DNA of 64,000 nt from Escherichia coli (GTDB lineage: Bacteria > Pseudomonadota > Gammaproteobacteria > Enterobacterales > Enterobacteriaceae): assembly GCF_003334405.1 (NCBI RefSeq), contig NZ_QOWM01000012.1, one strand, 5' to 3'. The notes under the pieces were generated by a model. The model had not been told where the DNA came from and made no database searches. It worked only from the letters and a program-made list of their open reading frames with translations. Below, piece by piece: positions 1 to 22,086 of the stretch. A program made the position numbers and the translations under genes. Each line of letters opens with the position of its first letter. Positions within the stretch are counted from its first letter, which is position 1.

Positions 1-2534
1 GTGTTTTTCGTCCCCAAATCCGTACTGGATGCGCTGGCGCTGTGGGTGTGCGATTTAATGCCGTCCTGTTCCTGAGACAATACGGCACGACCACTGGCGG
101 GTTTGCCCTTAATCGTCCAGCCACGCATATCAGGGATCACGCCTGACGGATAAGCGGCTGCAAGTTTCGGGTATGCAGATTTGTCAAAAGTCTGTCCCTG
201 CATCAGGGCATAGCCAGACGGAACGGTATCTGATGGCCACGGGATTGGTGCGCCAGGCGGATAAAACTGCTCTGATGGCGTATAGAGTGAATAAACTGTA
301 CCGTCCGTTAACCCTTCCGGCTTATTAGCAGAATATGCTGGTGACGTATGAATCGTCACGCTGGCATTACTGGTATAATCCCATTGAATATTTACACCAG
401 TCGCATAATTTCCGATTGCAACGTAAATATCGTAAGTATCACCAGATGTATTGACCCAGGCAAAATTTGTAAACCCTGTCGATGTGCGCTGCCATAAAGC
501 ACCAGTAATCCCCTTCGGATTACCATTACCTGCACGCAAAACAAGTTCAGATATACCTGCCTGTTGAGGTGACCCCACGTTAAATCCCGCGCCACCAATC
601 AACGTAATTGAAACAACAGAACTCGCCTGTGGCATGGTTACCGTTGCTAATTTGAACCAACCAGCACCACCGCTGAATGACATTGTTGTTGAGTTAAGCG
701 TACCAATATCTTTCGGCGTCAGTGTTATATCCGCTGAAAGCGCCTTACCATTCACCTTACGGGCAGAAGGTACCCGACCATTCGCATTATCATTAGCTGC
801 TTTCACTGCTTTCGGTGTCGCGGCAAGCGTTTCAGATGCGCTGTTGGTTGCACTACTGAGCTGGACAATTCCTTTTTGTGCTGTCGTAGCGTCCTGAGCA
901 GTATATTTCCCGTTAGCAAGGTCATAGGCTGCCTTTACCGACTTTGGCGTTGCCGCCAGCATTTCAGATGTGCTGTTGGTCGCGTTGCTAAGCTGAACTA
1001 TCCCTTTCTGTGCTGTCGTTGCATCCTGTGCGGTGTATTTCCCGTTAGCCAGCTCATACGCGGCCTTAACGGCTTTTGGCGTTGCCGCCAGTGACTCGGA
1101 AGTGCTGTTAGTCGCACTGCTGAGCTGTACTATCCCCTTTTTCGTCGTGCTCGCATCCTCAAGCGCCACGGCGGATGCAATATCCTCTGCCCGTTTTGCC
1201 GCTGTCTCGGCGCGCGTTGCCGCGGATTCCGCCGTACTTTTGCTCTGAGCTGCCGCCGTCGCACTGCCAGCTGCCTCTGTCGCCTTCGTGGATGCCGTCG
1301 TGGCGCTGCCCTTTGCTGCTGACGCCTGTCTGGTCGCCTCATCTTTTGAAGCAGACGCAGATGATGCCGATGACGCCGCCGAACTGGCGGACGATGCGGC
1401 AGCCGTTTTTGAGGATTCTGCGCTGGTTTCCGACGCTTTCGCGTTCGTCTCGGATGTCTTCGCTGCGGAAGCAGACCTCGCTGCTGCGCTGGCCTGTACA
1501 GCGGCTTCGCCAGCCTTCGTTGTGGCTGTTGAAGCAGACGATGCAGCACTTTCTGCCGATTTTCCGGCGGCGGTGGCACTGGCTGAGGCCTGCCCGGCAC
1601 TTGTTGACGCGGCACTGGCAGATAATGCAGCCGCTGTTTTTGAGCCTGCCGCAGCTGAGGCGCTCTGTCCCGCTGCCGTTTCAGAAGACCTGGCGTTCGT
1701 CTCGGACGTTTTTGCCGCCTTCGCAGAATTTGCTGCCGCCGTTGCCGAGGAAGCTGCGCTGCTGGCGCTCGAGGCTGCGTTCGTTTCTGATGATTTTGCC
1801 GCCTCTTTTGAAGCCGACGCATCCCGTGCTGAAGTGGCTGCTTCTGACGCTTTCGTGGTCGCGGTGGATGCAGAAGTGGCTGCTGATTGTTGTGACGCTG
1901 CCGCATTCGTTTCTGACGTTTTCGCCGCACCGGCACTGGTAGCCGCCGCGCTTTTTGAGGACTCTGCAGCGGCAGCACTTTTTGATGCCTCAGAGGCTTT
2001 TGCTGATGCCGTTCCTGCGCTGGAAAAAGCCTCCTGAGCCGACGTCGCGGCCTGTCCGGCTGACGTGCTGGCTGCACGTGCTGAGCCTGCAGCATCAGTC
2101 GCATGGGTTGCCGCCTCACTGGCAGATGTGCTGGCATCACTGGCTGACTTCTTCGCGGCTGCCGTGTTCTGTGCCACTGCGGACGCGTTACGCACCACCT
2201 CTTCCACCATCAGTTCAAAACGTCGCAATGCCTCCGGACGGGCATCATCCTCCGTCATGGCACCGAGAAAATCATTCAGCGTACCGGGTTGAGAATCTTC
2301 ATACACGGTGATGGTCCCGGCATGTGACGGCGGGAATCCTTCCACCAACAGAATAACGCTGTACTGACCGTACTCAACGTCCATGCTGTAACGCCCGGCT
2401 TCATCCGGATTTTCTGAGGCCAGCGTGTTCACCACCACCGTGGTGCTGTTACGTTTTGCTTTCAGCTGGATTGTGCAGTTCTGTACCGGTTTTCCTGTGC
2501 CGTCTTTCAGTACACCTGAAATCTTTACTGCCAT
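1..2534 (-). CDS. stf: Side tail fiber protein Stf, partial (C-terminal end lies beyond the window start)
   Basis: Minus-strand ATG at 2534 gives [30 protein letters not shown]..., matching the lambda Stf N-terminus; a fragment at 1141-1200 translates [19 protein letters not shown] in the same frame; my manual scan of that frame from 1140 to 1 found no stop. Absent from the ORF track because it has no stop inside the window. Confidence 0.8.
780..1150. repeat. About 2.5 tandem copies of a ~132-bp unit inside stf (44-aa peptide repeat)
   Basis: Recurring blocks gctgttggt...tttcccgttagc...ggcgttgccgccag at ~132-bp spacing. Confidence 0.6.
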
Positions 2535-2545
2535 ATTCACCCCAC

Positions 2546-2576
2546 AAAAAAGCCCGCCTGAACCGGCGGGCTGTCA
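2546..2576 (-). terminator. Putative rho-independent terminator between lom and stf
   Basis: Minus-strand hairpin gcccgccggttcaggcgggc followed by a T-run. Confidence 0.5.
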
Positions 2577-2598
2577 TAACACTGTGTTACCTGGCTAA

Positions 2599-3198
2599 TC
2601 AGAATTTATAACCGACACCCATGATGAAACCGTCAGTGCGCCAGTCGCCACTGCCGGAGCCTTCATAAGCAATATCAATGGCCACGGATTCGGTCGGGTT
2701 AAACTGCACGCCAGCTCCCCACGCCAGAGACGTGTTGCTGTGGCGACCGTCATCACTTCCGGTCAGCACGTCGTGCGTTTTCCCCTTGTTGTCAGTTACG
2801 CGGAGATAATCCCCGGAGAAAGTCGACACACGGCTGTAAGCCACACCCGCCATCGCATACGCGCTGAACCATTCATTCACGCGCACAGACGGCCCCGCCA
2901 TCACGCTGAACCAGCGGTTACGAACGGAATCTTCATGCCAGCGGGTATCGCTGTAATGGGTCAGCTGGCGATTCTTGTCTCCTGCATAGCTGAATGACGT
3001 CACCATCCCCAGTGTGTCCGTAAACTCATAACGGTATTTCACGTTAATCCCGTTCAGATCATCGCTGCCGGGAACGTTCGTCGAGGCATGAAGATACCCC
3101 GCGCTCAGCGTGGACTGATGTTCAGATGCCCATGCAGGCGCACCGGATACGGCCAGACAAATGGCTGCGGAAAAAATGGCGGCATAAAGTTTACGCAT
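2599..3198 (-). CDS. lom: Lom/Ail-family outer membrane beta-barrel protein
   Basis: 199-aa ORF with signal peptide MRKLYAAIFSAAICLAVSGAPAWA and C-terminal GVGYKF; sits between J and stf as in lambda. Confidence 0.85.
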   Translation of the reverse strand: MRKLYAAIFSAAICLAVSGAPAWASEHQSTLSAGYLHASTNVPGSDDLNGINVKYRYEFTDTLGMVTSFSYAGDKNRQLTHYSDTRWHEDSVRNRWFSVMAGPSVRVNEWFSAYAMAGVAYSRVSTFSGDYLRVTDNKGKTHDVLTGSDDGRHSNTSLAWGAGVQFNPTESVAIDIAYEGSGSGDWRTDGFIMGVGYKF

Positions 3199-3220
3199 AA
3201 TTACCTCTCGCTTTTCTGCA

Positions 3221-3250
3221 ATAAAAAAGGCACCATTTCTGGTGCCCTTA
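3221..3250 (-). terminator. Putative rho-independent terminator downstream of the J remnant
   Basis: Minus-strand hairpin ggcaccagaaatggtgcc followed by ttttttatt. Confidence 0.45.
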
Positions 3251-3267
3251 TATGGGTTATAACAATT

Positions 3268-5294
3268 TCAACGAATACTGATGCCGGAAGCGGCTTTTTT
3301 GGTCACAATCACCGTACAGTCGGTGATATTACCTGCCCGCTGATTGCCTTTATGGAAAACCTTAAACTCCAGAGTGACGCTTCCCCTGCCACTCGGCATA
3401 TCAATAACCGCACTGTAGCTACCGGGAATGGCCCCTTTAGTTTCTCTGGATGCGATTAATACACCGTTTTTGCGAACTTCAAAACCATAACCCGTGTATC
3501 TTGTACCTCCCGGGTTATTACCACTTCCCGGATCGCTATACGCTATTCCGTTAAAGATAATGGGCGGAATAATAATCTGACGGTCAAAGTTATGATCATC
3601 GCTGATGGTGACTGTAACCGTCCCGTTTGGTGTTTCCGTGTTACCCCACGTACCAGCCTGTTTCGGAAATGATTTGGATACAGCTTTAACGAAGTCACCT
3701 CTGACCTGAGTCGCCTCCAGCATGCCCTTAATCGTACAGTTTTCATTTACCGTGACATTGTTGAGCGTCCCGGCGTTCGCATTCACACTGCCACTGATAT
3801 CCGCATTTTTAGCGGTCAGCTTTCCGTCCGGTGTCAGGGAAAATGCCGGTGGATTTCCACCGCTGGTAATGGTGGGGGCCGTCAGGCGTTTCAGGAACAC
3901 GTCGTTCATGAATATCTGATCGCCCTGACCAACAAACATCGGTTTTGTGTTGCCATTCGCAGGATTAACCATCGCAATCCTGTCCGCCGCCAGCAGCACC
4001 TGACTCTGCATGCCGTCAGGGGTGTTCTCAATACCGGCACCAATACCCGCGATATAAAGGCGTCCGTCCTGCATCTGCTGCAGCTTCACAGCCCACATGC
4101 TGTTCAGGTTATTATTTGTATCAACCTGAACCTTCTGTATCTGCTGAATTGCCGCACTCTGGTCTTCCAGTTTCTTATTGACGGTCTGCGTGATTTCATT
4201 GCTGACATCCGTAATGGACGTCCTGATTTCAGCCAGGTCAGGCGCAAGCTGACCGTTATCAATCTGCGTCCACAGCTCCTGAGCCAGATGGGTTTTCCCT
4301 ATCTCGCCTTTGAAAAAATCCAGATAGCCGGATGCATCATCACTCGGCCGACCAACAGCCTCCACGAATGCCGATTTGCCAACGGTGTTCACACTGCGAA
4401 CGTAAAAATAATAATCATGGCCCGGTTTGATATTGATACTGGCGGCTATCCAGTACAGCGCCGTACCAAGATAACGCGCGCTGGTTTCAACCTGCCTGAT
4501 ATCAGCAATCCGTTTTTCCGAGAACCAGAACTCAAACTGTACCGTCGGATCATAAACCGCAAGATGCGGCGTGGCGGTTATCTGAAAATAGCCCGGCGTC
4601 AGCTCAATCCGCGACGGCGCTGCCGGTGCGGCAACAGGCGCTGGCGCAACGTCGGCAGCTTCAGCCCCCATACGCTGTATTCAGCAACGCCGTCAGGAAC
4701 ACGGCTCACTTTCACCTTCACGCCGCCGGTGACGGACTGAACCTCCACGCTGACCGGACTCCCCTGCCCGTCAACCAGGCTTATCAGCGTGGTACCGGAG
4801 GATGGCAGCGTGATTTCACGGTCGAGCGTCAGCGTCCGGGTCTGGCTGTTTACCGCCAGCACGCGCCCGCCGGTGCGGATACCGGCATAGTCATCATCGC
4901 AGATTTCAATGACATCGCCCGGTACATGGCGAAGCCCTTCGGCACCCACGCTGAAGTCCACGGTCTGCGTTTCCAGCAGTTCTGTTTTAATCAGCCACAG
5001 CCCGGCGCGGTGTGCCTGCCCCCGGCTGGTACAGCCAAAGGCATCCATCTTCGTGACGTTACGACCGTAACGGGCAATGGCCTGCGTGTCCTCCACAAGC
5101 TCTGTTGCCGTCTCCCAGCCGTTGTCCGGGTCAATCCAGTTCACCTCAACGGCATTATGGCGGTCCTTCAGGGCGCTGAAGCTGTAGCGGAACGGCGCGT
5201 CATCATCCGGCATCACCACATTACTGCGGTTATAGGTCCACACCTTATCCCGAAGAAAACACCACCAGAGAGACCGCAGGTCCGGACAGAGCAT
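3268..5294 (-). pseudogene. J: Tail tip host-specificity protein J remnant: N-terminally truncated, with an internal out-of-frame deletion near 4640-4680
   Basis: ORF 4599..5294 matches the central region of lambda J (FRYSFSALKDRHNAVEVNWIDP...[14 protein letters not shown]); ORF 3268..4671 matches the J C-terminus ([36 protein letters not shown]...); the two frames overlap at 4599-4671. Confidence 0.8.
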
Positions 5295-5413
5295 TCAGCT
5301 CTGCCAGTGTTTCTCCCGGGATCACAGTCATATCGACATCATTAATCGAGGCTGTCTTTCCCATCTTTCTGACCGTGATAGCATCCATACGCGCTGCCAG
5401 CCGGGAAAAGGGA

Positions 5414-5782
5414 TCAGACATTGAGTTTTACCGGCACTTCTTCTGCACTGGTTCCGGCATCTGCCCAGACAACCCCGACCAGCGGATCAGAGCCGCTGTT
5501 AGTCAGCTGAATTTTTCCGGACTTCAGATAAACCTTCTTACCCGTTTTCATGTCATCCGTTTTCAGCTTAGGCAGCATAAACACACCTTCGGTCATGCCG
5601 TCGCCTGTTTCACCCTGTGGAATATCGGTCAGCGCCACCGCAAAAACATCGCCCACCTGCACCAGATCTCCGCTGCTGATGGCTGCACTGGCAACAATCG
5701 CCACCGTTTTTCCTTCTTCTACAAAATTCTTTGCCATAACTGTCTCCGCACAGCCCCGTTCAGGGGCTGATTTCAGGTACAA
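5414..5782 (-). CDS. Small head decoration/cement-like protein (DUF2190-like)
   Basis: 122-aa ORF MAKNFVEEGKTVAIVASAAISSGDLVQVGD..., directly downstream of the capsid gene. Confidence 0.6.
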   Translation of the reverse strand: MYLKSAPERGCAETVMAKNFVEEGKTVAIVASAAISSGDLVQVGDVFAVALTDIPQGETGDGMTEGVFMLPKLKTDDMKTGKKVYLKSGKIQLTNSGSDPLVGVVWADAGTSAEEVPVKLNV

Positions 5783-5823
5783 AAAAAGCCCTTACGGGCC
5801 ATCAGAGTTGTTGTCTGCGACGT

Positions 5824-7782
5824 TTACGCCGTACATTTCACCAGACCGCGGTGATCAACTGGCGCGACACCGGCGTCAATACGCACTTTCGTTGTCACGC
5901 CATCCACACTGAAGCCCTCCATCTGATCAATATATGGCGTATCCACACCGTTGAGATAAGCCACTTCAATCGTATCGGAGCCTTTTGACGCAGCCAGGTA
6001 GAAGGTGGTCTGGCTGTTATCATCAAGACGAGGCTCTGCAATAACGGTCGCAAAATCTTTCACCGGGTTAATAATACCGGCGTTAATGTCAGCCCCCTTG
6101 ACACTTGAGGAGCGAATGACCTGGTTAGCAACAGACTCCATCGCCGTCGGTACCAGTACGAACGCAGGACGAATATTCAGATGACGCTCCCCCTCTTTCT
6201 GAACGCGCATCAACTGGCGGGCTTTATCCAGCGATGCCACGTCCATTGCAGCGCTCTCCAGTACGTTTGCATGTTTCGCTTTATCGAACAGACTTACATT
6301 ATCTGTGGAGATTTTCGGGTTAGACGTCAGAATGGCATAAACCAGATCGGCAATAGTGGATTTCGCCGCACGGCCCAGTTTCATCGGGACATCGGTCAGC
6401 ATATTCAGATCATCATTGATAATGGCCTGACGGGTGATACTGAACAGCTCGCCATAGGTCGCCAGTGCAATAGTGGCCTGTTTATCTCCGGTGGTGACGT
6501 ATTTATATTCCGCCCCTTCACGCACCTGACGCAGAGCACTGAAGCCCCCCATACCCACACGATGGGCAATTTTAAAATCAGACAACTGACCTTTCCGCGT
6601 CCACTGTTCATAGGTTTCAGGGGCATCTTCCCAGCCCTGCAGAATGGCTTTGTTCGCAACATCCAGCAGAATATTACCGAAGTCAGACGTACTGTGTGTG
6701 AACGCCGCACCGACCATCTGCATCGGGTTATAACCGGAAACCCCAATACCCCGTTCAGTTAGTGACATACGGGCATATTCACGCAGGGTCATCCCGTTGT
6801 AGACATTATCACGTTCGGTTTTTTCAAATCCGGCACGCGCCATCAGCGCCTGGCGAATCCCGTCCCCCACAAAATTACCGTTACCGGCATAAATATGAGC
6901 CGGGGTATTTTTATTGGATGGCGTGGACTCGCGCCCCATCTCGTTCAACAGCTTTTCACGGGCCTGCTCCAGCGAACATTCAGGATCGGCAAGACACTGA
7001 GCCTGCAGCGTCTGATAACGCCCGCCAAACATGGCAAACAGATCATTAATACCGTTTACACGCGCTTTTTGCTCTGCCAGTACCTGCGCACGGATGCTGT
7101 TTTCATCCACCACGGGTGCTGCTGCCTGCACTGGCGTCCGGGAGGCTTCAGATTCATTATCCTGTACGCGTGGAGCACTGTTGCGTGGCGGAGTAATCAT
7201 GTTTCGAATGGATTCCGGCATCTTTTTAAATTCCTCTGTACGTTTTGACTGAATACATGCCATTGCCTTAACGGCTGGCGTTACCTGATCAGCAAATCCA
7301 TGTGCCAGACATTCGGCACCGGACATCCAGGTCTCATCCGCCAGCATGGCAGCAATTTCATCGGTGGTTTTCCCGGTTTTCTGTGCATAAGCGGGTAACA
7401 GAACCGCCTCAACTTTATCGAGCAGGTCGGCATAGGTGCGCATGTCCTCCGCATCACCGCCCGTAAAGCCAAATGGTTTATGAATCATCATGAAGGTGTT
7501 TTCCGGCATAATGACCGGGTTTCCTACCATCGCAATGACCGACGCCATTGACGCCGCCACACCGTCGACATAAACGGTAATGGACGCACCATGTGTTTTC
7601 AGCGCATTAAAAATGGCGATGCCTTCAAAGACATCGCCACCCGGTGAATTAATATGGAGATTAATGTGGGTGATATCGCCCAGTGCATTCAGATCACTGA
7701 TAAACTGCTTCGCTGTAACACCCCAGAAACCAATCTCGTCATAAATATAAATATCCGCGTCACTCTGGTGACCAGCCTGCAT
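5824..7782 (-). CDS. ClpP-like prohead protease fused to an HK97-fold major capsid protein
   Basis: ORF track gives 5824..8043 (739 aa); the first ~87 codons overlap the terminase ORF, so the likely start is the ATG at 7782 (MQAGHQSDADIYIYDEIGFW). ClpP-like block NSPGGDVFEGIAIFNALK...ASMASVIAMVG, then a capsid-like C-terminal half. Confidence 0.8.
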   Translation of the reverse strand: MQAGHQSDADIYIYDEIGFWGVTAKQFISDLNALGDITHINLHINSPGGDVFEGIAIFNALKTHGASITVYVDGVAASMASVIAMVGNPVIMPENTFMMIHKPFGFTGGDAEDMRTYADLLDKVEAVLLPAYAQKTGKTTDEIAAMLADETWMSGAECLAHGFADQVTPAVKAMACIQSKRTEEFKKMPESIRNMITPPRNSAPRVQDNESEASRTPVQAAAPVVDENSIRAQVLAEQKARVNGINDLFAMFGGRYQTLQAQCLADPECSLEQAREKLLNEMGRESTPSNKNTPAHIYAGNGNFVGDGIRQALMARAGFEKTERDNVYNGMTLREYARMSLTERGIGVSGYNPMQMVGAAFTHSTSDFGNILLDVANKAILQGWEDAPETYEQWTRKGQLSDFKIAHRVGMGGFSALRQVREGAEYKYVTTGDKQATIALATYGELFSITRQAIINDDLNMLTDVPMKLGRAAKSTIADLVYAILTSNPKISTDNVSLFDKAKHANVLESAAMDVASLDKARQLMRVQKEGERHLNIRPAFVLVPTAMESVANQVIRSSSVKGADINAGIINPVKDFATVIAEPRLDDNSQTTFYLAASKGSDTIEVAYLNGVDTPYIDQMEGFSVDGVTTKVRIDAGVAPVDHRGLVKCTA

Positions 7783-7795
7783 CCTGAACCAGGAA

Positions 7796-9592
7796 TTATT
7801 CTTCGGACTGGTCGTCGGTGTGCTGCGGCTCCTGTCGTTTCGTTGCGGCACTACTGCCTCCTTTATCACTGGCCGGATCGGTATCAAATACCAGATCCAG
7901 CTTGCGGTTTTCATCAATTTCGGCCTTGCGCCGACGTTTGACATCATCCGGATTACGACCACCAGCACGTACCCAGTCTGATTCTGTCGCCGCTCCACCA
8001 CGAATCTGGATTTTCCAGGCCTCAGCCTCCTTAACAGGGTCAATCCACGGCATCACTGGTCCGGAATACACCGCGGTATACAGTGAAGAACGGTCAAGAT
8101 CGCGGGGTAGCCTGATAACACCGGATGCCACAGCCTGTTTCAGCCACGCACGATACATCGGGCGGGTGACGGCACCAATAAACCAGTCCTGCAGGATCAG
8201 GTAGCTGGCCGGATCAATTCGCTGGCTCTCCCCGTCGCTGTCACCGCGCAATGACTGCGTGATGTTGTAACGATCAATAATCCAGCGTTCGCCACGGCTG
8301 CCATAGCCCGTTACCTGAACCACAAAACGGCGATGACGTCCCGCCTGCACATCCACTGTCGCCACAAGGAAATTAACGCCATCCGGCACACTGCGGGAAG
8401 GAACTGGCTCTGCCCGCTGCTCAAGCAGTTCACTTTTTCGTTGCTCCATGCTGGCGCGGGGAAGATAAGGTAATCCCCAGTCGGTATTGATAACCGTCTT
8501 GAGTGTTTCTTCACTTCCGGTTGTCTCGTATTCCTGTTCTGCAGTAAGCAGTTTGTAAACGAGTTGCGAGAGTGTCTGGTAAGCAGCTGCCGGACCCTCC
8601 ATCCAGAATGACGCAATACGTGAGCGTCGGGGATCACCATAACGACTGCCATCCGCATTGATGGATTCACCATCCCGCAACCAGACCCCACGTCCGTTCA
8701 GCTCACGTTTGTGTTCAGGCATAATCCGTCCTGAACAGGAAGGACACTGAATATAAGCCGCCTCACTTGCCAGCACGGGATCGGCAATATCACGGAAACC
8801 AGCAACCACATCGCCGCAGGGCTGAAAATACTCACCACAGTGTGGACAGGGCCAGTACCAGCGACGGCGATCGCCACGGTTATAGAGCGACAGTATCCCC
8901 GTGGTTGGTGGAGCCTCATGCGGTGAAGTCCGTCGCCATTTCACATCCTTCACATCCCTGCCGGGGGAACTCTCCACAAGCGTCATACCACTGGACATAA
9001 ATGTTGTGGTACGTTTTGAGGCAAGAGAGAAAGCATCCCCCTCGCCATCAATATCTTCCGGAAAACGGTCATAATCCGTCAGCGCGACGCATTTATAATC
9101 TGATGAGGACATGATATTGACTGACGGCCAGCCGATTTTCAGGTAGTTACCAGCAAGGAATGTTCTGTCATAAACGTTGTTGTCATTTTTGTTCGGACTC
9201 AGGCGACTGACCACTTCCGGGCTGACGCGAAACGTTCTGGCGAGTCGTTTTTTGGAGTGTTCGCGGGCTTTTTCCTCCGTCATCTGAATGATCAGCATAT
9301 CAGCAGGATCGCAAATCACGTTGTAAATCACCCAGCCGTCAATCAGGCCGATAGTCTTGCCGGTTCGTGCCGGGCCAACAAATATCACTGCGTCGTATTC
9401 ACGCGAGGCCAGGCAGTTCATCGGCTCAATAACATACGGTGCCACCAGCGGATCCCACGGGACTGAGTTCCCTGCCCCCATGGGCACCCGCATATACTGA
9501 GCAACGGCATCAGCAACCCGCATTCGTCTCGGTGCGCGAAGGATATAACCTGAATCGGTTCGTGCTGCCTTTGCGGTTTCCTGATTCAGCAT
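7796..9592 (-). CDS. Terminase large subunit, lambda GpA family (the C-terminal ~90 aa may be a fused remnant, see findings)
   Basis: 598-aa ORF with Walker A VGPARTGKT and zinc-finger-like WPCPHCGEYF...CPSCSG, typical of GpA-type terminases. Confidence 0.85.
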   Translation of the reverse strand: MLNQETAKAARTDSGYILRAPRRMRVADAVAQYMRVPMGAGNSVPWDPLVAPYVIEPMNCLASREYDAVIFVGPARTGKTIGLIDGWVIYNVICDPADMLIIQMTEEKAREHSKKRLARTFRVSPEVVSRLSPNKNDNNVYDRTFLAGNYLKIGWPSVNIMSSSDYKCVALTDYDRFPEDIDGEGDAFSLASKRTTTFMSSGMTLVESSPGRDVKDVKWRRTSPHEAPPTTGILSLYNRGDRRRWYWPCPHCGEYFQPCGDVVAGFRDIADPVLASEAAYIQCPSCSGRIMPEHKRELNGRGVWLRDGESINADGSRYGDPRRSRIASFWMEGPAAAYQTLSQLVYKLLTAEQEYETTGSEETLKTVINTDWGLPYLPRASMEQRKSELLEQRAEPVPSRSVPDGVNFLVATVDVQAGRHRRFVVQVTGYGSRGERWIIDRYNITQSLRGDSDGESQRIDPASYLILQDWFIGAVTRPMYRAWLKQAVASGVIRLPRDLDRSSLYTAVYSGPVMPWIDPVKEAEAWKIQIRGGAATESDWVRAGGRNPDDVKRRRKAEIDENRKLDLVFDTDPASDKGGSSAATKRQEPQHTDDQSEE

Positions 9593-10086
9593 TACTCCTC
9601 CTGCTGTAATTCCTCCTCATCATCCGCACCTGCTTCAGTCACCCGCAGGGCTATCTGATCGCGCAGATCATCAATAATGGACTGAACACGGCTCACAGCG
9701 GCAGGCTGCAGACCGCAGTCACGTTCAAGAATATCCGGTAATGTCTCCAGCACCTGCACGACCGCTTTTGCCCAGATGGCAAACTCCCGTCTGACATCAC
9801 TGGCCGGAATGAGTTGTGCCGTTTCCTGTTCGAACTTAAGACGCTCACGTTCAGACTGATACCAAGCTTTGCGCTCATGCGCGTCCATTTCGCCTTCTGC
9901 AACCGGCGGTGGTAATGCCAGAAATGCCGACACAATATCAACCACCCGATAAAGCTTGAGGTTGCTTTCATGCCCCCCTGCAACGGGTAGATTTTGCAGC
10001 CTTGCCGCAGCAGTCTGGCGATGTACACCTGACAGTGCCGCCAGTTGACTGATATTCAGCGTCAGATTTTTCAACTCTCGATCCAT
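9592..10086 (-). CDS. Terminase small subunit (Nu1-like)
   Basis: 164-aa ORF directly upstream of and overlapping the terminase large subunit start; N-terminal HTH-like LTLNISQLAALSGVHRQTAAARL; acidic C-terminus. Confidence 0.75.
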   Translation of the reverse strand: MDRELKNLTLNISQLAALSGVHRQTAAARLQNLPVAGGHESNLKLYRVVDIVSAFLALPPPVAEGEMDAHERKAWYQSERERLKFEQETAQLIPASDVRREFAIWAKAVVQVLETLPDILERDCGLQPAAVSRVQSIIDDLRDQIALRVTEAGADDEEELQQEE

Positions 10087-10249
10087 ACCCGCTCCAGAAT
10101 GTTTTAAACATGCATCTTGCGAACAACTTTAGGCAAACGGTGTTAGCGATGAACAAAAAACAATCAAAATCGACACCGTAAAAATAAAAACACTGTAATA
10201 TCAATATATTACAGTAGTGGTGATGACGAATAAAATTTCAAAAACTAGC

Positions 10250-10290
10250 CTTTTTCCGCGACGCTCCCGCCCCGTGGCAGGCCACCCCAC
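10250..10290. other. Candidate cos site
   Basis: Minus-strand CACGGGGCGGGAGCGTCGCGG followed downstream by TTCGTCAT, resembling lambda cosN GGGGCGGCGACCTCGCGG...CTTCGTCAT; lies just upstream of the Nu1-like gene. Confidence 0.4.
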
Positions 10291-10539
10291 CGGAAGGACC
10301 CGCCAAAATGAGAGTGATTATCACCATTGCTGATGAATAAATTGATGAAAATCATTGAAACGCCTTTCAGCAAGATAACGGCGACGGTCGTTGTTGAACT
10401 CCGTAGCTCTGCTACTAAGGTTAAAAGCATGGCCATCTTTTGCCACCGGCAAATCTTCAATGGATTTCCCCTGCCGGTTTTTTATTCCTCACATTATCGC
10501 AGCCCCTCAGTGAAGGGCTGCTGTAATGCCTGCTCTTAC

Positions 10540-10902
10540 TCAGTAACGACCGCGCCTTCCGGTAATTTCATACCGGCAAATACCGGACAGCCCGGGGATC
10601 GTTATCTGCAGCTGGTTAGCCAGGGAGTTAATCTCAGCGACCAACACTGGCTTCGTATAGCGCCATGCCGCCAGCCCTTGTCCACAGAAGCTCGCCATAT
10701 CTTTTTTCTGATCAAACTCATGACACTTCATATTGAGCTGCGCACTTAAGCTGTTGCGATGCTGAAGTTCTCCGGTGAAGTAGTCATCCAGGACTTTATA
10801 GGCTGCATATTTAAATCCGGGGTTTAGCCATGCTGCATAATCATAAGCAACAAACTTCCCGCCATATGTTCCACCGTGTACACCGCGCTCAGTAAAAACC
10901 AC
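10540..10902 (-). CDS. Hypothetical phage protein with a KilA-N-like motif
   Basis: 120-aa ORF; GGTYGGKFVAYDYAAWLNPGF resembles the conserved KilA-N core also seen in the 265-aa ORF at 16986..17783. Confidence 0.45.
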   Translation of the reverse strand: MVFTERGVHGGTYGGKFVAYDYAAWLNPGFKYAAYKVLDDYFTGELQHRNSLSAQLNMKCHEFDQKKDMASFCGQGLAAWRYTKPVLVAEINSLANQLQITIPGLSGICRYEITGRRGRY

Positions 10903-10923
10903 AGATTCGTGTTTTTTCTCCAG

Positions 10924-11391
10924 CTACTTAATGCGCTGGGTGCGGATATATTCCTGCGCCCCTTCCAGTTGCTTCTGCATCGTCATCAACCGTTCTCTGA
11001 GGGTGAAATAATCCCGTTCAGCGGTGTCTGCCAGTCGGGGGCTGGTTGCATTATCCATGCTGGTGGGTCCGGTGGCTTCACGCACGGCTGCGGAGCAACT
11101 GGCATTGACCCGCAGGCGCTTACGACCAGCGGCAACATCAGCGCGCAGAGTTTCATTTTCAGTTTTCGCATCGGCTAACTCCTTCGTGTATTTTGCATCG
11201 ATCGCAGCAACATCACGCTGACGCTGCTGCATGTCAGCGATGGTGGCGGTCGCCTGCTTCAGCTCACTGACTTTTTTATCACGCTGTTCTTTGTAGGCGA
11301 TGGCGTTATCACGGTAATGATTGACCGCCCACGACAGGCAGACGATGATGCAGATAACCAGAGCGGAGATAATCGCGGTTACTCTGCTCAT
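10924..11391 (-). CDS. Rz: Spanin inner-membrane subunit Rz
   Basis: Strongly similar to lambda Rz ([31 protein letters not shown]...); ORF track start is 11403, likely start is MSRV at ~11391. Confidence 0.85.
10986..11171 (-). CDS. Rz1: Spanin outer-membrane lipoprotein Rz1, embedded in Rz in another frame
   Basis: 61-aa ORF with lipobox LVVSAC and proline-rich [29 protein letters not shown], as in lambda Rz1. Confidence 0.8.
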
Positions 11392-11885
11392 TGTTGCCCC
11401 CACAAACAGACTTCACGCTCAATCTCACGACGAGTCATCAGGCCTTTCCATTGCTTACCGCCAGCGTATGTCCAGCGACGTAGCTGGTCACATGCGCCTT
11501 TGATATCGCCCTGGTTGATTTTGCGAAGAAGCGTCGATGTTCTGAAATTGCCAGCACCCACGTTGTAGACGAACGAGTAAAGAGCGCCGCGCGTTGTTTC
11601 CGGTATATCGACTTTGATGTACGGGTTAATTTGTCTGGCGACCGTGGCAAGGTCTTTATTCAGGAGGGCTTTGCATTCTGCTTCGGTATACGTTTTACCT
11701 AGCATGATGTCTTTTCCGGTGTGTCCGTGACATACAGTCCATACGCCAACGATATCTTTGTATGGTATGTAGCTGACACCTTCCAGGCCATCGTCACCAC
11801 TCGGACCAGTGATGAGCACAGACGCTATGGCAACAGCCCCACCACCAATAGCAGCAGCAACAGCCTTGCGTAATGATGGCGACAT
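11388..11885 (-). CDS. R: SAR endolysin (phage lysozyme, phage 21 R-like)
   Basis: 165-aa ORF with an N-terminal weakly hydrophobic signal-anchor-release segment [18 protein letters not shown], then a lysozyme-like domain. Confidence 0.9.
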
Positions 11886-12100
11886 TATTCACCTCTCGCA
11901 GCCTTACGCTTATCTTCTTTAATCTTGAAATAAAGGTTTGTCAGATACGTCAGCAAGCCAAATACCAGACTACCTAGCACACCTATTGCCGCCCACTGTG
12001 AGGGCGTGACTTTATCGAGCAACTGTAAAAACCAGTACCCGGCACTACCTGCTGAGGTGCCATAGGCGACACCCGTTGTTAACTTATCCATGGATTTCAT
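11885..12100 (-). CDS. S: Pinholin (phage 21 S-like)
   Basis: 71-aa [29 protein letters not shown]... with the dual-start MKSM motif and two transmembrane segments, paired with the SAR endolysin. Confidence 0.9.
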
Positions 12101-12166
12101 AACCCCACCTCGCAGATGCGGGTGCTGTGTAATGGAAATAAAAAGGCCACCTACGTGGCCACCAGA

Positions 12167-13219
12167 TTATTTCCCCACCAGCTCGTTTATCTCTTTCACT
12201 GTCTGGTTAAACCGCTCTGACTCAAGCTCAACACCTAAGGCCCGACGCCCCAGCGCCATTGCTGCTTTTATTGTGGAACCGGATCCCATAAAAAAATCAG
12301 CAACCAGATCACCAGGTCGACTACTGGCATTGATTATTTGCCGGAGCATATCCGCAGGTTTCTCACACGGATGTTTACCCGGGTAGAACTGAACGGGTTT
12401 ATGCATCCAGACATCGGTATAAGGCACGGAGACTGATACGGAGAAATAGCGCCGGAGAGATTTAAACTCATCCAGCAATTCAGAATATTTGCGATTCAGT
12501 GAATCATAAGATGCCACCAGCTGGTGGTGTGGTTGTTCCAGTTGTTGTTCCTGAAACTTCTCTGCCGCTATACGGGAAAACAGTGCCTGTAACTTCCGAT
12601 AGTCAGCCTCATTCGGCAACTGCCACTGACTGGCACCAAACCAGTGGGAAACCATATTTTTCTTACCTGTGGCTTCGGCAATTTGTTTTGCCGTTATACC
12701 CAGTTCGGCACGAGCATCCCTGAAATACGATATCAGCGGTGCCATTATGTGCTGTTTGAGTTCCCTTTCTTTTGCCGCATAGCCGTCACTTTTGCCGCGA
12801 TATGGCCCCTGGTAATGTTCAGCAAACAGAACGCGCTCTGTGGCAGGAAAATATGCGCGCAGACTTTCTTTATTACACCCATTCCAACGTCCGGACGGCT
12901 TCGCCCAGATGATATGGTTAAGCACGTTGAAACGTTCACGCATCATGATCTCAATATCAGATGCCAGGCGATGCCCACAGAACAGGTAAAGGCTTCCGGC
13001 AGGTTTCAACACCCGCCAGAACTGGGCCAGACAGTGGTCCAGCCACTTAAGGTAATCTTCGTCCCCTTTCCACTGATTGTCCCAACCGTTGGGTTTCACC
13101 TTGAAGTAAGGCGGATCGGTAACAATCAGGTCAATGGAATCATCAGGCAGGGACTGAATAAAATGCAGGCAATCAGCGTTGATTAAATCAACACTGTTTA
13201 TTTTTACAGTATTTTTCAT
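12167..13219 (-). CDS. Orphan DNA methyltransferase (N6-adenine/N4-cytosine beta class)
   Basis: 350-aa ORF with motif IV DPPY near the N-terminus (LIVTDPPYF) and motif I FFMGSGST near the C-terminus. Confidence 0.85.
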   Translation of the reverse strand: MKNTVKINSVDLINADCLHFIQSLPDDSIDLIVTDPPYFKVKPNGWDNQWKGDEDYLKWLDHCLAQFWRVLKPAGSLYLFCGHRLASDIEIMMRERFNVLNHIIWAKPSGRWNGCNKESLRAYFPATERVLFAEHYQGPYRGKSDGYAAKERELKQHIMAPLISYFRDARAELGITAKQIAEATGKKNMVSHWFGASQWQLPNEADYRKLQALFSRIAAEKFQEQQLEQPHHQLVASYDSLNRKYSELLDEFKSLRRYFSVSVSVPYTDVWMHKPVQFYPGKHPCEKPADMLRQIINASSRPGDLVADFFMGSGSTIKAAMALGRRALGVELESERFNQTVKEINELVGK

Positions 13220-13368
13220 GGATCAGTAAGCGTAACTCTGGTAGGCTCACTCTGCTTTTGCGCTAAAGCAGTGGGCCGTGGTTCGCTTGTGACCAGTAAG
13301 CATGAGCGAATGGCTGGCAGGTGCTACCAACACCCACCAGCCGCCCATTTTCACAAATTAAAAGTCCT

Positions 13369-13587
13369 TCATTGCTGAAGGCGTCTGTAACAGCCGAACT
13401 GGTAATCTGCCAGCCCCGCCATAACCAACTGGGTCAGTATTAACTGACAGCGTTCGCGTGAAAGATATGTGTTTTGTGCAATCTCCCCGACTGTTGCCGG
13501 TTCGATGCTTAATTCATTAAAAACAACTTTCGCCGTTTCTGTCATATCTTGCTGTTTTAGCATGTCTTTTTTCCTTCTGGTTAACAT
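13369..13587 (-). CDS. Small hypothetical protein, possible winged-helix DNA binder
   Basis: 72-aa ORF; segment TVGEIAQNTYLSRERCQLILTQLVMAGL looks HTH-like. Confidence 0.4.
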   Translation of the reverse strand: MLTRRKKDMLKQQDMTETAKVVFNELSIEPATVGEIAQNTYLSRERCQLILTQLVMAGLADYQFGCYRRLQQ

Positions 13588-13662
13588 GACATACCAATAA
13601 CTCTTGTCTAAAAAGCCAGCAAGATAAAAAGTCAGTATTCACGACCACCAGCGTGTTTACCG

Positions 13663-13697
13663 TACTGCACCAGGTTTACAGGTACAAAAAAACCCGC
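13663..13697. terminator. Strong intrinsic terminator hairpin, candidate tR'-type element on the minus strand
   Basis: aaaaaaacccgctcgacggcgggttt; the minus-strand reading has the stem followed by seven T. Confidence 0.45.
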
Positions 13698-13975
13698 TCG
13701 ACGGCGGGTTTAAGTTGTGTGGCGAAGTAACCACTCTTGAGAGCATATCTGATTATTTACGATTGTAAATAATATATTCCCCCCAATAATTAGATTGAGA
13801 AAACATTACCATATTGATAATAAGGCAATTGACATAATTATAAAAATCATTCTTGGTTGATTTTAAAACAACAAATGCACGATATTTACCCAATCATTGA
13901 TGAATACATCTCTAAATGTTATAAATTTATTGTTTTTCTAAAGATAACTCTCATTCATATCAGGAAAGATAAAAA

Positions 13976-15427
13976 ATGTCAGACATAAAAAATATACTAA
14001 AATGCATGTACTTTGATAAAAATAGATACTCAAACTTTGGCTCCGTAATTAAAAGTCTAGAGATAAATGGATTTCGAGGAATAAAAAAACTAACATTAAA
14101 TATAAATTTTCCGGTAACTGCAATATCAGGGCTAAACGGCGCTGGGAAAAGCACTCTTGGGCAGTTAGCAATATGCGCATATAAAAAACCAGTTACAGCC
14201 CGTGAATATAAGAGATTATATATTAAAGATTTTTTCCCTGTATCTAAAGCCGATCCAGCCCCTTTCGATAATGACGCCAGTGTCATTTATAAATATGAAA
14301 CAAATGATTCAACGAAAACACAAGATGTGACTGTCACTCGCATAAAGTCTTCTTGGTCTGGATATAAAAGACAACCAGAAAGACACTGTTTTTACATTGG
14401 TTTTACTGTCTATATTCCAAAAGTAGAACGTAGAGATATAAGTGTTTATGGCGGTAAAGACTTTGATTTAACAGAGAGAAGAAGCGTCGACCATTCAGTA
14501 ATATTGAAGATGGCAAAAATAATAGGTCATCCATATGATGATATCGCATTCCAAGGAATTTCTCATAGAGCACGTCGTTCAGAAATTGGTATTGTTGAAA
14601 GACTTGGGTATTCTTATTCTGAAAATAACATGGGGTTTGGCGAAGGAAGAGTTCTTTATACGGTTGATATGCTTGAAACAGCTCCAGAGCAAAGTCTTTT
14701 CGTACTAGAAGAACCAGAAACATCTCTTCATGAAAGCGCACAGTATGAATTTGCAAAATATTTAATGGAAGTATGTCAACGTAGAAAACATCAAATAATA
14801 TTATCAACACACTCAAGTGTGATATTAAATGCTTTACCTCCTGATGCACGAAAATTACTTATTAGAGATCAGACTGGTGTCTATATCAAAGATGGAATTT
14901 CAACAACTCATGTGAGATCAATACTGTCTGATGGGCAGTTTAAAGGGCTGCATATTTGCGTAGAAGACCAGTTTGCAAAAGTTTTACTTAGTGAAGTAAT
15001 TAGAGCAAAGCGGAGAGACATTCTTAAATCCATTCAAATCACTGATATTGGAGATAAAGATGCAGTCCGACAAGCAGTCGAGGTATTCAAGAAAGCAGGC
15101 CTTAATGTTATTGCCGTAAGAGATGCAGATGTTGGAGAAAACATTAAAGATGATTTATTTTCTTTCCCTGGCAATAGGCCACCAGAAGTAGAAGTATTTC
15201 AACATGAGGAAGTAAAAAAATTCCTCTACAAGGAGTATCATATTGATTTTGATTGGTTAATAAAAAAGGAAGGGATTAGTGATCATCACAATTACACTCA
15301 AGCAATTGCTAAAGAAGCAGAATGTGAGGAGGAAGTAATTAGAACTTTAGCAATAAAAAAATATATTGAAATTATTGATGAGAAATTTGACCCACTTATT
15401 ACAAATATAGTAAGCAAAATAAAATAA
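13976..15427 (+). CDS. OLD-family-like ABC ATPase with C-terminal TOPRIM-like nuclease motifs; candidate single-gene anti-phage defence moron
   Basis: 483-aa ORF on the opposite strand to the phage operons, in an AT-rich island; Walker A GLNGAGKST, Walker B/D-loop LFVLEEPETSLH, H-loop LSTHSS, then ICVEDQ and IAVRDADVG (Toprim-like E and DxD); SD aggaaag upstream. Confidence 0.8.
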   Translation: MSDIKNILKCMYFDKNRYSNFGSVIKSLEINGFRGIKKLTLNINFPVTAISGLNGAGKSTLGQLAICAYKKPVTAREYKRLYIKDFFPVSKADPAPFDNDASVIYKYETNDSTKTQDVTVTRIKSSWSGYKRQPERHCFYIGFTVYIPKVERRDISVYGGKDFDLTERRSVDHSVILKMAKIIGHPYDDIAFQGISHRARRSEIGIVERLGYSYSENNMGFGEGRVLYTVDMLETAPEQSLFVLEEPETSLHESAQYEFAKYLMEVCQRRKHQIILSTHSSVILNALPPDARKLLIRDQTGVYIKDGISTTHVRSILSDGQFKGLHICVEDQFAKVLLSEVIRAKRRDILKSIQITDIGDKDAVRQAVEVFKKAGLNVIAVRDADVGENIKDDLFSFPGNRPPEVEVFQHEEVKKFLYKEYHIDFDWLIKKEGISDHHNYTQAIAKEAECEEEVIRTLAIKKYIEIIDEKFDPLITNIVSKIK

Positions 15428-15599
15428 CAAACCAGCAGGCGCTAATTACTAAAAACCTTGTACATTAGCGCCACCCTCAAATAAATTAGTGGTTATTAAA
15501 TCCCCACAAAAACATTAATATAAAGCACAAACAGTCCACCCTCCTTAATTTCATGCTAACAATACAAATTAAAAATCCAGATACTCATAAAATATCTTT

Positions 15600-15986
15600 C
15601 TAGATATTTGAGTCCATTTCCAATTCTATTTCTAACATTATCAACATACCTTCAATGATGCCTTCTGCCTTTTGCAATAAGCGCCCAACCCAGCAATCAG
15701 AACGCCCATGTTTACGGGCAAGCGCCATAAACGTCATACCACCTACATAATAATCTACTAATAAATCGTGCAAATCGCTGTTGTTCTTTTTCAGACGGGC
15801 CATGCACCCGCAAATGATCATCGCGTCATCGTCACAACATTGCGGACGGGATTTTACTTTTGAAGGAAGTAATCCCTTAAAACCGGCAGCAATGGACGAC
15901 CAGGTCACATCCTCATGATTATTAGCCGCCCATGCCCCCCAACGTTCAAGAACCATTTGAATATCACGCATCAACTTCCTCCACAA
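15600..15986 (-). CDS. Q: Late-gene antitermination protein Q
   Basis: 128-aa ORF with Cys-rich zinc-binding block [14 protein letters not shown]; sits upstream of the lysis and packaging genes. Confidence 0.8.
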
Positions 15987-15988
15987 AA

Positions 15989-16984
15989 TCAGGCCAGCAC
16001 GCCTATTGCCAGCGCACGATCGATAAAACGAAATATCAGCTCCAGCTGGGAACCATACTTCTCTTCAAATGCCACGGTATCCGCATGCAGCTCGTCGTGA
16101 TGCTTTCTGCACAAAGGCAACACAAAGAGGTCATGCGCTTTTGTAGCCATTCCACCCTGACCGTGGCCTATCAGGTGGTGGGGATCATCAGCAGGCTTTC
16201 CACAACATGCACACGGCTGTGTCTTAACCCAGCGTGTGTACTTTTCATTAACCCAGCGGCGACGTTTTGGGCGTAACATAAAAGACTCCGGCGACTCCGG
16301 ATCCACTTTCAGCGCCAGCACCTTTTTCGCCTTATCCTGGATGATGCTGGTGGCAGGAACCGAAGGCACAAGGTCACTTTCCCGGGTGACAGACGGCACA
16401 ACAGGCTTCGGTAATCTCAGTGCCTTACGGGCTGCACTTTCCGGTAAGGCATCCGCCAGGTCATTACGAATCAGCCACCAGCACAGTTCCGGCATTGTCA
16501 CAACGTGACTGTCATCAAAACCGAGATCCCGACGCACAACAGACAACACCCAGCGGGCACAGTTATCCGTTGCCATTGATTCCAGCCGTTCCGTGAACTG
16601 ATCACGCAGCTGGTTATCGCAGTGCCAGCACAGACGGATTGCGCCCGGCGCGTGTCGCATTGTTGTCATGTTCTCGCTGTGCCAGTCGGAATGAGGCCAC
16701 TGGCAGCCTTTTTCACGAAGTAACCAGCTTTCAAGACATTCCACGCCACCAGCACGACGGATCACTGCCTCATTGCGGAACACGGCCCGAACGGCAGGAT
16801 CATCCGCCAGCGGTTGTGATGCCGCCGGAACGGCACCACTGGCGAAAGATGAATAACGTTCCGGCTCAGGCTCCAGCAGGACACGCCCCTGCATAAACAG
16901 GGGCATCAGCTCTGAACCTGGTCTGAACAATACGATCCCCATACGCGGGGCAATTTCAGGGGTCAGTAGTGCTCTCACGGTCAC
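15989..16984 (-). CDS. Phage protein (DUF968-like) with a C-terminal Cys/His zinc-binding motif
   Basis: 331-aa ORF; C-terminal [14 protein letters not shown]...CRKHHDELH. Confidence 0.65.
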
Positions 16985-16985
16985 C

Positions 16986-17783
16986 TCAATGAACGGTATC
17001 GAGCAGCTTTAACAGCTCAGGGAATCGGGATTCGAAGAAATGCGGCTGCGTCTCGCGCGGATTTGCGGGACTGGTGATGTTCTTGCCGAACATGCAACCT
17101 TTCGCTGTCAGCGACCAGAATTTTTTGATGTTGTTAATCGCGGTACGGCTGTATCGTTCGCGTTGTTCCACGATCCCCAGCTTCGCCATCTGGTGATATG
17201 CCTGATTAGCCGTCAGGCAGATACCATACTGTTTCAGCAGTGCACTCAGTGACAGTGTCGGGCGACTTGAGCCATCAGGCGCGTCAGCAGGAGCATCAAT
17301 GGCATAGCGTGGTGCCAGATTCGGTAAGCCAACAGCCTCCTGGAGTTTCTGACAGGCCCCAAGCACAGATGAGTTAGACAGGTTTAACTCCCGGCGCATA
17401 AAGTCCAGCAGAATCACGCCAGCCTGCATCTTGTCAGCAGCCTGCCCGGATAATTTTTCCGGTGCGCTGGTTACCATATCGAAAGTACGGATCACCTTCA
17501 GATGGAATGACGGGCTGATCCACATTGCATAGGCATACACCAGTTCTTTGCAGACATACGTCCCCTGGTTATTTCCGCCACGACTAACGTTAACTGGCTC
17601 TATATTGACCGAGTTGCAAATCTGCAACTCGCTTATTAAACGTTCGGTTTGCTCATTGCGGAGCCAGAATGCAGGCTTATGCTTATCCTGAGAACCGGCA
17701 GCCCTGTGCAGATCGTTCAGGCTGTAACGCCCATAAGCATCACGACGAACTTCAATACCATCAATGACCATCAGATTATTCAT
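16986..17783 (-). CDS. KilA-N domain protein (antirepressor-like)
   Basis: 265-aa ORF; N-terminal MVIDGIEVRRDAYGRYSLNDLHRAAG and GTYVCKELVYAYAMWISPSF are typical of KilA-N. Confidence 0.7.
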   Translation of the reverse strand: MNNLMVIDGIEVRRDAYGRYSLNDLHRAAGSQDKHKPAFWLRNEQTERLISELQICNSVNIEPVNVSRGGNNQGTYVCKELVYAYAMWISPSFHLKVIRTFDMVTSAPEKLSGQAADKMQAGVILLDFMRRELNLSNSSVLGACQKLQEAVGLPNLAPRYAIDAPADAPDGSSRPTLSLSALLKQYGICLTANQAYHQMAKLGIVEQRERYSRTAINNIKKFWSLTAKGCMFGKNITSPANPRETQPHFFESRFPELLKLLDTVH

Positions 17784-17802
17784 ACTTCGTTTCTCCTCTT
17801 AA

Positions 17803-18192
17803 TCAGGCGGCTGCACCCGCCGTTTTCTCGTACTTACTGATAGTGATCTCGACCTTCCCTTCCGGGATAACCGGCCCCCACTCCACCAGCATTCTTTTCA
17901 CCTGGCTGTCGTCTTCCCACACCCCCGCGTGGGTCAGGGCGTCAAACAGCGCCTTGTTATAGTTGTCCAGATCGCGGATCCGGTTATCCGGAGGAAACAA
18001 CACGATCTCCACTGAAGCAGGTGCCGACGTTGGTTTCGGCAGACGACGTAACTGCTCAACTATTGCTGCGCACGCCGCGCTCTGGAATTTTCGCCCCGCC
18101 TCGCTTATCAGGCTTTTACCTACAAACGCCCCTTTGTTGGGGTGTCGCCAGTACGTGTTCACGCTGGGCGGGAAAGGCAAGATCAGCTTCAT
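17803..18192 (-). CDS. rusA: RusA-family Holliday junction resolvase
   Basis: 129-aa ORF LILPFPPSVNTYWR...DLDNYNKALFDALT. Confidence 0.85.
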   Translation of the reverse strand: MKLILPFPPSVNTYWRHPNKGAFVGKSLISEAGRKFQSAACAAIVEQLRRLPKPTSAPASVEIVLFPPDNRIRDLDNYNKALFDALTHAGVWEDDSQVKRMLVEWGPVIPEGKVEITISKYEKTAGAAA

Positions 18193-19947: not shown

Positions 19948-19956
19948 GACCGACCT

Positions 19957-21882: not shown

Positions 21883-22086
21883 TTTTTATACTTGACAATG
21901 TACCTTTGAGATACATAATGTACCCAAGAGAAACAACAAACAGGCAGGACGCTCACGAAGTAGCCGCCTGGGGCATATGAAGTCCAGGATGATTCGTTAG
22001 CAACAAAAAAGCGCCCTACAGGACGCTTAGCTCTTTAACAATCTGGTCCCCATCAACAAGTAACTGATAACTTGAGGAGGTGTGAA

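Follow-up and report, generated by a model that had tools for sequence, protein, structure and literature searches.

A lambdoid prophage at thrW of Escherichia coli with three deletions in its morphogenesis genes

The first 64 kb of the Escherichia coli contig QOWM01000012.1 (draft assembly GCA_003334405.1), counted from the contig end and referred to here as the window, carry a lambdoid prophage at the tRNA-Thr gene thrW. The late genes are encoded on the minus strand, and at window position 1 the contig ends before the element does, inside a side-tail-fibre gene. Very probably it is a young deletion-defective prophage in which three deletions (D1, D2 and D3) destroyed virion assembly. Relative to intact close relatives it has lost genes essential for virion production, the mark of a defective (cryptic) prophage; its sequence leaves it unable to encode a portal, a complete large terminase subunit (TerL), a head-tail adaptor or any tail. 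Since the integration, early and lysis genes are full length, ‘morphogenesis-defective’ is a better label than the ‘grounded’ of an initial annotation of this DNA.

Deletions in the packaging, head and tail genes

The deletions were mapped by blastn and base-level junction alignment against phage mEp460 (NC_019716) and the intact prophage of E. coli M10, to which the junction flanks are 99-99.7% identical. Alignment to intact relatives had been proposed in the initial annotation as the way to find the endpoints, and it fixed all three junctions to the base; the pattern is not one produced by chance. The first deletion created a chimeric gene:

8202-8205, minus strand: D1 junction, at the microhomology GCTA (alignment to mEp460 and the M10 prophage)
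7796-9592, minus strand: TerL(1-464)::portal(368-502) chimera, 598 amino acids, WP_165838114.1 (PHROGs, Pfam, tblastn)

D1 removed the equivalent of mEp460 nucleotides 1910-3932 (2,023 bp), joining TerL codon 464 (of 700) in frame to portal codon 368 (of 502). Lost with it were TerL residues 465-700, the 70-residue W-like adaptor gp03 and portal residues 1-367. The open reading frame (ORF) ending at 7796, initially annotated as the terminase large subunit, is thus a fusion of a TerL part (8204-9592) and a portal part (7796-8203) from which most of the nuclease domain is gone. PHROGs profiles divide it accordingly: residues 1-454 match terminase phrog_15, and residues 463-597 match the portal profiles phrog_537 and phrog_21. 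Pfam analysis reveals a complete GpA_ATPase domain, followed by only model positions 1-116 of 294 (the first 40%) of GpA_nuclease. The last 135 residues (464-598) are 100% identical to residues 368-502 of the mEp460 portal in tblastn. The earlier statement that there is no room for a portal gene is correct, as the chimera ORF is followed, 13 nt on, by the protease-capsid start codon at 7782. The absence of a portal stands as far as the gene is concerned; the last 135 portal residues nevertheless survive within the chimera, just outside the interval to which the loss had been assigned. Of the packaging and head set formed by the small terminase subunit (TerS), TerL, portal, adaptor and protease/capsid, TerL and portal are therefore broken and the adaptor is absent, the last a loss that the initial annotation did not list.

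WP_165838114.1 is named ‘terminase gpA endonuclease subunit’ in RefSeq, whereas its true content is a truncated terminase with a portal C-terminus: an annotation trap. The name hides a broken gene, and annotations should list the prophage as incapable of virion production.

The second and third deletions removed the tail module and left three remnants:

5246-5249, minus strand: D2 junction, at the microhomology GATA, out of frame (alignment to mEp460 and the M10 prophage)
5245-5421, minus strand: gp07 remnant, codons 1-58 of 91 (5248-5421), with a stop created at the D2 join (tblastn, 100% over 1-58; Pfam PF13856; ORF list)
4632-5249, minus strand: J fragment A, central tail fibre/tip, codons ~366-570 of 1137 (phrog_31, phrog_7997, tblastn, frame analysis)
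4628-4632, minus strand: D3 junction within J (pairwise alignment, three-frame translation)
3268-4631, minus strand: J fragment B, the C-terminal receptor-binding part, codons ~712-1137 (phrog_2148, tblastn)

D2 corresponds to the absence of mEp460 nucleotides 6889-16042 (9,154 bp) and joins codon 58 of gp07, a head-tail joining gene of the Gifsy-2 family, to J codon 366. With it went J codons 1-365 (the N-terminal third), the gp07 C-terminus, gp08 and the equivalents of U, V, G, T, H, M, L, K and I, so that genes for head-tail joining, tail tube, chaperone, tape measure and tip are gone. As first stated, the decoration gene has its end at 5414 (ORF list, PHROGs), and J does resume soon after it from its central region only (codon 366 of 1137). 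J sequence begins at 5249, however, and not at 5294: the ORF 4599-5294 opens at a spurious ATG that is gp07 sequence read in another frame. The supposed short gap without J sequence behind the decoration gene in fact holds the first 58 gp07 codons (5248-5421).

D3, which the initial annotation had not recorded, is a frameshifting loss of a further 421 bp (mEp460 nucleotides 16656-17076) within J, with the same gap against the M10 prophage. J thereby lacks codons ~571-711 in addition to 1-365, and fragment B, whose ORF spans 3268-4671, lies in a different frame from fragment A. This C-terminal receptor-binding part (3268-4671) shows ~78% protein identity to mEp460 J, and ~170 nt of J (4100-4268) do not align to mEp460 at the DNA level, typical host-range mosaicism.

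The reported absence of the tail-shaft genes is upheld. A tblastn search of the entire 64-kb window with the mEp460 head and tail proteins recovered the portal C-terminal fragment and no homologue of the gp03 adaptor, gp08, U, V, G, T, H, M, L, K or I. A complete tail module, from the U, V, G, T, H, M, L, K and I equivalents to J, is thus missing. The junctions of D1-D3 share 0-4 bp of microhomology, and none contains inserted DNA or a mobile element; judged by these junction sequences, the three deletions are products of illegitimate recombination.

On either side of the lost segments, several late genes are retained:

5824-7782, minus strand: ClpP-like prohead protease/major capsid fusion, 652 amino acids, full length (phrog_133 over 1-652; 99.1% to mEp460 gp05)
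5414-5740, minus strand: head decoration (cement) protein, 108 amino acids, full length (phrog_122, tblastn)
2599-3198, minus strand: Lom (Ail/Lom outer-membrane protein), 199 amino acids, full length (phrog_108, tblastn)
1-2534, minus strand: Stf-like side tail fibre, open over 844 codons and running off the contig end (direct translation)

Across the protease-capsid, decoration and residual portal stretch, only 8 mismatches in 2,960 bp separate the element from the intact M10 prophage, none of them a disabling change. The Stf-like gene contains a long Ala/Ser-rich region with three tandem repeats of ~40 residues. The contig break within it may stem from a repeat that other prophages in this genome also contain. 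The mEp460 Stf protein has no tblastn match in the window, although the DNA aligns up to mEp460 nucleotide 19933.

Age of the defect and order of losses

A 10.8-kb contig (L003) from the Logan assembly of run SRR3989531 is 100% identical to the window across all three junctions, and contigs carrying these deletions are recorded for several samples. This independent assembly, together with the several samples, establishes that the deletions are real. They are also rare. The D1 and D2 junctions occur in none of 5,426 complete E. coli genomes, ~2,000 of which carry these terminase and portal genes, and an exact scan with the D1 junction 30-mer found no copy among JGI metagenome contigs or GTDB species representatives. 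At 90% identity, the chimera forms a cluster with a single member (WP_165838114.1) among ~15 billion proteins. The orphaned capsid genes are undamaged, which argues for recent decay and against long maintenance. By these sequence counts the defect is rare and young, and it looks like recent decay rather than long-term retention.

A second lineage (L004; Logan SRR29542960 contig 286, positions 1-7323) bears on the order of events. It carries the identical D1 junction and the identical 598-residue chimera protein, with tail deletions of its own (mEp460 nucleotides 7047-7789, and 10044-17128, from H into J). Still present in it are gp07, V, G and T, together with the first part of H; both lineages have intact capsid and decoration genes. 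Because D1 is identical while the tail deletions differ, loss of portal and packaging functions probably came first, and comparison of the two sequences suggests D1 as the probable first inactivating event. The tail genes, by then useless, would have disappeared separately in the two lineages, in keeping with the view that prophages decay under a deletion bias. In published surveys, incomplete prophages are reported to lose genes for packaging, replication and release preferentially (PMC7744054), and a first loss in the packaging genes agrees with that survey. The shared D1 with different tail deletions provides a small natural example of the order of prophage gene loss.

Around the shared D1, 45 of 4,727 bases differ between the window and L004, and the differences are clustered in patches. 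Within the chimera ORF, 12 are synonymous and none nonsynonymous. Purifying selection on the fusion was considered as the cause of this pattern and rejected: both TerS-TerL' haplotypes also occur in prophages with full-length TerL in complete genomes (L004 at 100%, the window at 99.9%), so that the differences reflect standing variation that was imported. Most simply, D1 arose once, its carriers then recombined with intact relatives, and each lineage lost tail genes on its own. Independent recurrence of D1 at a 4-bp microhomology seems unlikely.

Intact functions, predicted inducibility and alternative explanations

The integration site and the genes from the integrase to TerS are as follows:

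25843-25918, minus strand: tRNA-Thr (CGU) gene thrW, the integration site (ARAGORN)
24665-25828, plus strand: tyrosine integrase, 387 amino acids, full length, 99.5% to SfIV Int (tblastn)
24345-24785, plus strand: excisionase, 147 amino acids, full length, 100% to SfIV (tblastn)
21178-21852, plus strand: cI-type S24/LexA-like repressor, 224 amino acids, full length, 100% to SfIV p37 (tblastn)
20890-21087, minus strand: cro-like gene, intact (tblastn)
15612-20843, minus strand: early-right operon, every gene full length (tblastn with SfIV and vB_EcoS-569R4 proteins; Pfam labels)
13976-15427, plus strand: 483-residue ABC ATPase-TOPRIM moron gene between Q and the lysis genes (PADLOC HEC-04, ATPase-Toprim_I-B)
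12167-13219, minus strand: DNA N6-adenine methyltransferase, full length (tblastn, PADLOC MTase_II, Pfam labels)
11885-12100, minus strand: holin, full length (tblastn, Pfam labels)
11388-11885, minus strand: endolysin, full length (tblastn, Pfam labels)
10924-11403, minus strand: Rz-type spanin, full length (tblastn, Pfam labels)
9592-10111, minus strand: TerS, 164 amino acids, DUF1441 type, with the inferred cos (phrog_141)

The tyrosine integrase gene adjoins thrW, and SfIV homology extends 46 bp into the tRNA gene (25843-25888; the blastn alignment ends at 25888); hence the prophage starts at thrW. By this alignment, the att core lies within the 3' 46 bp of thrW, at the position expected. 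The far end of the prophage and the second att site lie outside the window, beyond the contig end. The early-right operon contains a cII-like gene, p40, an O-like replication protein (19009-19947), PerC-family, LexA-like, RusA, KilA-N and DUF968/HNH genes, and the Q antiterminator. Three small early-left genes are likewise full length. Compared with SfIV, vB_EcoS-569R4 and mEp460, every gene examined from int to TerS is full length, and the lysis, immunity, replication, integration and accessory genes share 97-100% protein identity with these references; Q, KilA and Rz are divergent alleles, yet full length. The description of the lysis, regulatory, replication and accessory genes as intact is thereby confirmed. 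The ends of the mEp460 record (the inferred cos) fall at ~10111/10112, and window positions 10305-9900 align unbroken across the joined ends at 97%.

The element therefore retains much of a functional lambdoid phage: int and xis next to att, with full-length immunity, replication, Q and lysis genes. It is not itself one, because the packaging, portal and tail sets are incomplete. On general lambda biology and the intactness of these genes, SOS cleavage of the S24-type repressor would start the lytic programme, Int and Xis would excise the element, the O-like protein would replicate its DNA, Q would switch on late transcription, and holin, endolysin and spanin would lyse the cell. The late products would be TerS, a 66-kDa dead chimera with neither a complete nuclease nor a prohead-docking C-terminus, and at best portal-less shells, so that no infectious particles would be released. 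Derepression, excision, replication and lysis on SOS induction are thus probably still possible, to judge from the gene complement. The prophage may remain inducible and lethal to its host, a possible liability and not a locked-in relic.

Several points weigh against the reading of a young, morphogenesis-defective but inducible prophage. Inducibility, excision and lysis are predictions from gene intactness, and the position of the far end, with the second att site and any further cargo, beyond the contig limits judgement of excision competence. A co-resident helper phage elsewhere in the draft genome could complement the defects. Finally, given 45 differences in 4,727 bases, a single origin of D1 holds only if its carriers later recombined with intact relatives; D1 may instead have recurred independently, or its allele may have been transferred.

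The alternative that survives best is that of the initial annotation, in which the element is a domesticated, ‘grounded’ prophage selected for host-beneficial cargo (defence ATPase, Lom, methyltransferase, immunity). The moron gene is one candidate. It lies on the strand opposite to Q and the lysis genes, in a region of 36% local GC content, and its DNA has no match in 50,697 phage records, where its flanks alone match. PADLOC assigns the protein to HEC-04 (E=3.9e-47, residues 5-410) and to ATPase-Toprim_I-B (E=2.5e-22, residues 238-470), which fits the single-protein architecture of HEC-04/IbfA, an ABC ATPase with a C-terminal TOPRIM domain. From these profile matches, its product resembles a putative defence ATPase of the HEC-04/IbfA type. 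HEC-04 is an ABC ATPase-TOPRIM protein that defends against T4 and T5 (10.1101/2024.01.29.577857) and is homologous to the plasmid-encoded IbfA (PMC12111858). Lom and the DNA methyltransferase are further candidate cargo, and this gene in the moron slot between Q and lysis, Lom, the orphan adenine methyltransferase and the repressor are all intact.

Nevertheless, an intact prophage would carry the same cargo equally, and the lysis cassette, costly to the host, is intact as well. A grounded prophage has been defined as one in irreversible lysogeny, its att or recombinase genes damaged and excision impossible (Ramisetty and Sudhakari 2019, PMC6379469). On visible evidence the element does not demonstrably fit this definition: int (99.5%) and xis (100%) match those of the functional phage SfIV, and the thrW-side att core is present; the second att site lies beyond the contig end. 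Retention for cargo likewise finds no support in junctions confined to a few samples and absent from the databases scanned, a single-member chimera cluster, and orphaned capsid genes whose undamaged state points to a recent defect. Given the recency of the deletions, an argument from cargo retention is unnecessary, and domestication appears unlikely.

A helper-dependent, satellite-like element, comparable to the capsid-forming phage-inducible chromosomal islands (PICIs) and dependent for portal, terminase and tails on an mEp460-like phage in the same host, is highly improbable. Mobilization by a helper is conceivable because the inferred cos region and TerS are intact, as are int, xis and the replication genes. 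The tail genes are absent, as in tail-less satellites, and the contig break in the tail-fibre gene could mark a repeat shared with another prophage. However, three random-looking junctions inside genes apart, the element matches a complete phage at 99% identity, and its portal and TerL are broken and its lysis genes present, unlike in capsid-forming PICIs. The visible ~26 kb plus an estimated few kb amount to ~65-72% of the 44.5-kb mEp460 genome; the lambda-type headful packaging limit is ~75-78%, and the element would fall below it.

There is likewise only a slim chance that the retained late genes are more than debris and that the chimera, expressed with the intact TerS from the late operon, is a dominant-negative decoy. 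Such a decoy would interfere, as a prophage-encoded function, with DNA packaging by mEp460-type phages that superinfect the cell or reside in it. The presence of the same chimera on two haplotypes differing by ~1%, with capsid and decoration genes kept and tails lost independently, would be compatible with retention or spread of the fusion allele; this two-haplotype pattern is explained equally by one neutral deletion and recombination with intact relatives. An assembly artefact, with contigs wrongly joined at short repeats and no true loss of the genes, is barely credible: the draft is a short-read assembly and the contig does end inside a repetitive tail-fibre gene, but junctions sharing 0-4 bp offer far too little to mislead an assembler, the Logan contig is identical across all three, and D1 is also present in an unrelated run on a different haplotype, and the contigs are recorded for several samples.

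Relation to known phages, prophages and satellites

The closest complete phages to the morphogenesis region are mEp460 and its relatives (99%), and the intact E. coli M10 prophage is closer still (99.7%). The element has the same head and tail gene order as mEp460, cdtI, Ayreon, vB_EcoS-569R4 and the M10 prophage: DUF1441 TerS, gpA-type TerL, W-like adaptor, portal, ClpP-capsid, decoration, gp07, lambda-like tail, J, Lom and Stf. Nucleotide identity to the mEp460 group reaches 99-99.7% across the TerS-TerL', portal'-gp07' and record-end regions. Against this group, the element lacks 2,023 + 9,154 + 421 bp and has an integrase and early region of SfIV rather than mEp460 type.

The opposite relationship holds for SfIV, SfV, SfII and the thrW prophage of strain FORC_081, which share a 97-99% identical int, xis, immunity and replication region and the same site next to proA. 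The FORC_081 prophage is SfV-like, with an HK97-type head and contractile-tail module unlike that of the element; SfV and SfIV carry the same kind of module. SfIV also has gtr serotype-conversion genes beside its integrase, whereas none is visible in the window, whose prophage has its far end beyond the contig. By sequence comparison, the element is a mosaic of an SfIV/SfV-type integrase and early region and an mEp460-type, lambda-like head/tail module.

FORC_081 is also the strain with the nearest chromosomal backbone, and it carries this different prophage at the same thrW; its positions 43702-48767 (L009) match window positions 21935-27000 at 99.0%. Aligned side by side, the two sequences read clearly as module exchange at one att site. 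They have in common an early-left variant without the yfdQ-like DUF2303 gene. This arrangement had been a candidate fourth deletion (~1.3 kb, at 23133-23144; compared with SfIV, 569R4 and mEp460, the DUF2303 gene and a portion of the following gene are missing). It was rejected as a decay step and is a standing variant, because the ungapped 99.0% match lies in a prophage with a complete morphogenesis module.

To the right, the prophage is followed by the host genes proA-proB-phoE-crl, which are 100% identical to those of several complete E. coli chromosomes. Further on, window positions 33800-58000, and probably on to 64000, have a GC content of 55-59% and encode flagellar genes (flgK, fliD, flgE, flgI, fliK and others). 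This stretch, which on its annotated gene names we take to be the Flag-2 lateral flagellar locus, adjoins pepD, gpt and frsA, and at least 80% of it is present in 1,054 of the 5,426 complete E. coli genomes.

Like capsid-forming PICIs, the element has capsid and small-terminase genes and no tails. Capsid-forming PICIs, however, encode an intact portal, terminase and head-tail connectors of their own, and carry neither lysis genes nor a full phage early region. Here, portal and TerL are destroyed, holin, endolysin and spanin are present with a full lambdoid early region, and the junctions lie inside phage genes, which sets the element apart from such islands.

The closer comparison is with the cryptic prophages of E. 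coli K-12 (DLP12, Rac, Qin, e14 and CPS-53/KpLE1), which are likewise deletion-defective lambdoid prophages with some accessory genes kept. RefSeq annotation of the FORC_081 prophage even gives early genes found here the K-12 names yfdN, yfdR and yfdT, which presumably belong to CPS-53/KpLE1 (the mEp460 record carries a supporting KpLE1 note). The relics in K-12 are old and widespread, and their erosion is far advanced. Unlike them, the element has three disabling lesions only, is recorded from a few samples, and keeps int, xis, immunity, replication and lysis genes intact. Existing knowledge of prophage decay is unchanged by these findings; what they contribute is a base-level deletion map, recognition of the chimera and a two-lineage example of stepwise decay. 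Thus, while the element differs from the K-12 relics in age and in the extent of its erosion, it is an instance of the same very familiar kind, the deletion-defective lambdoid prophage.

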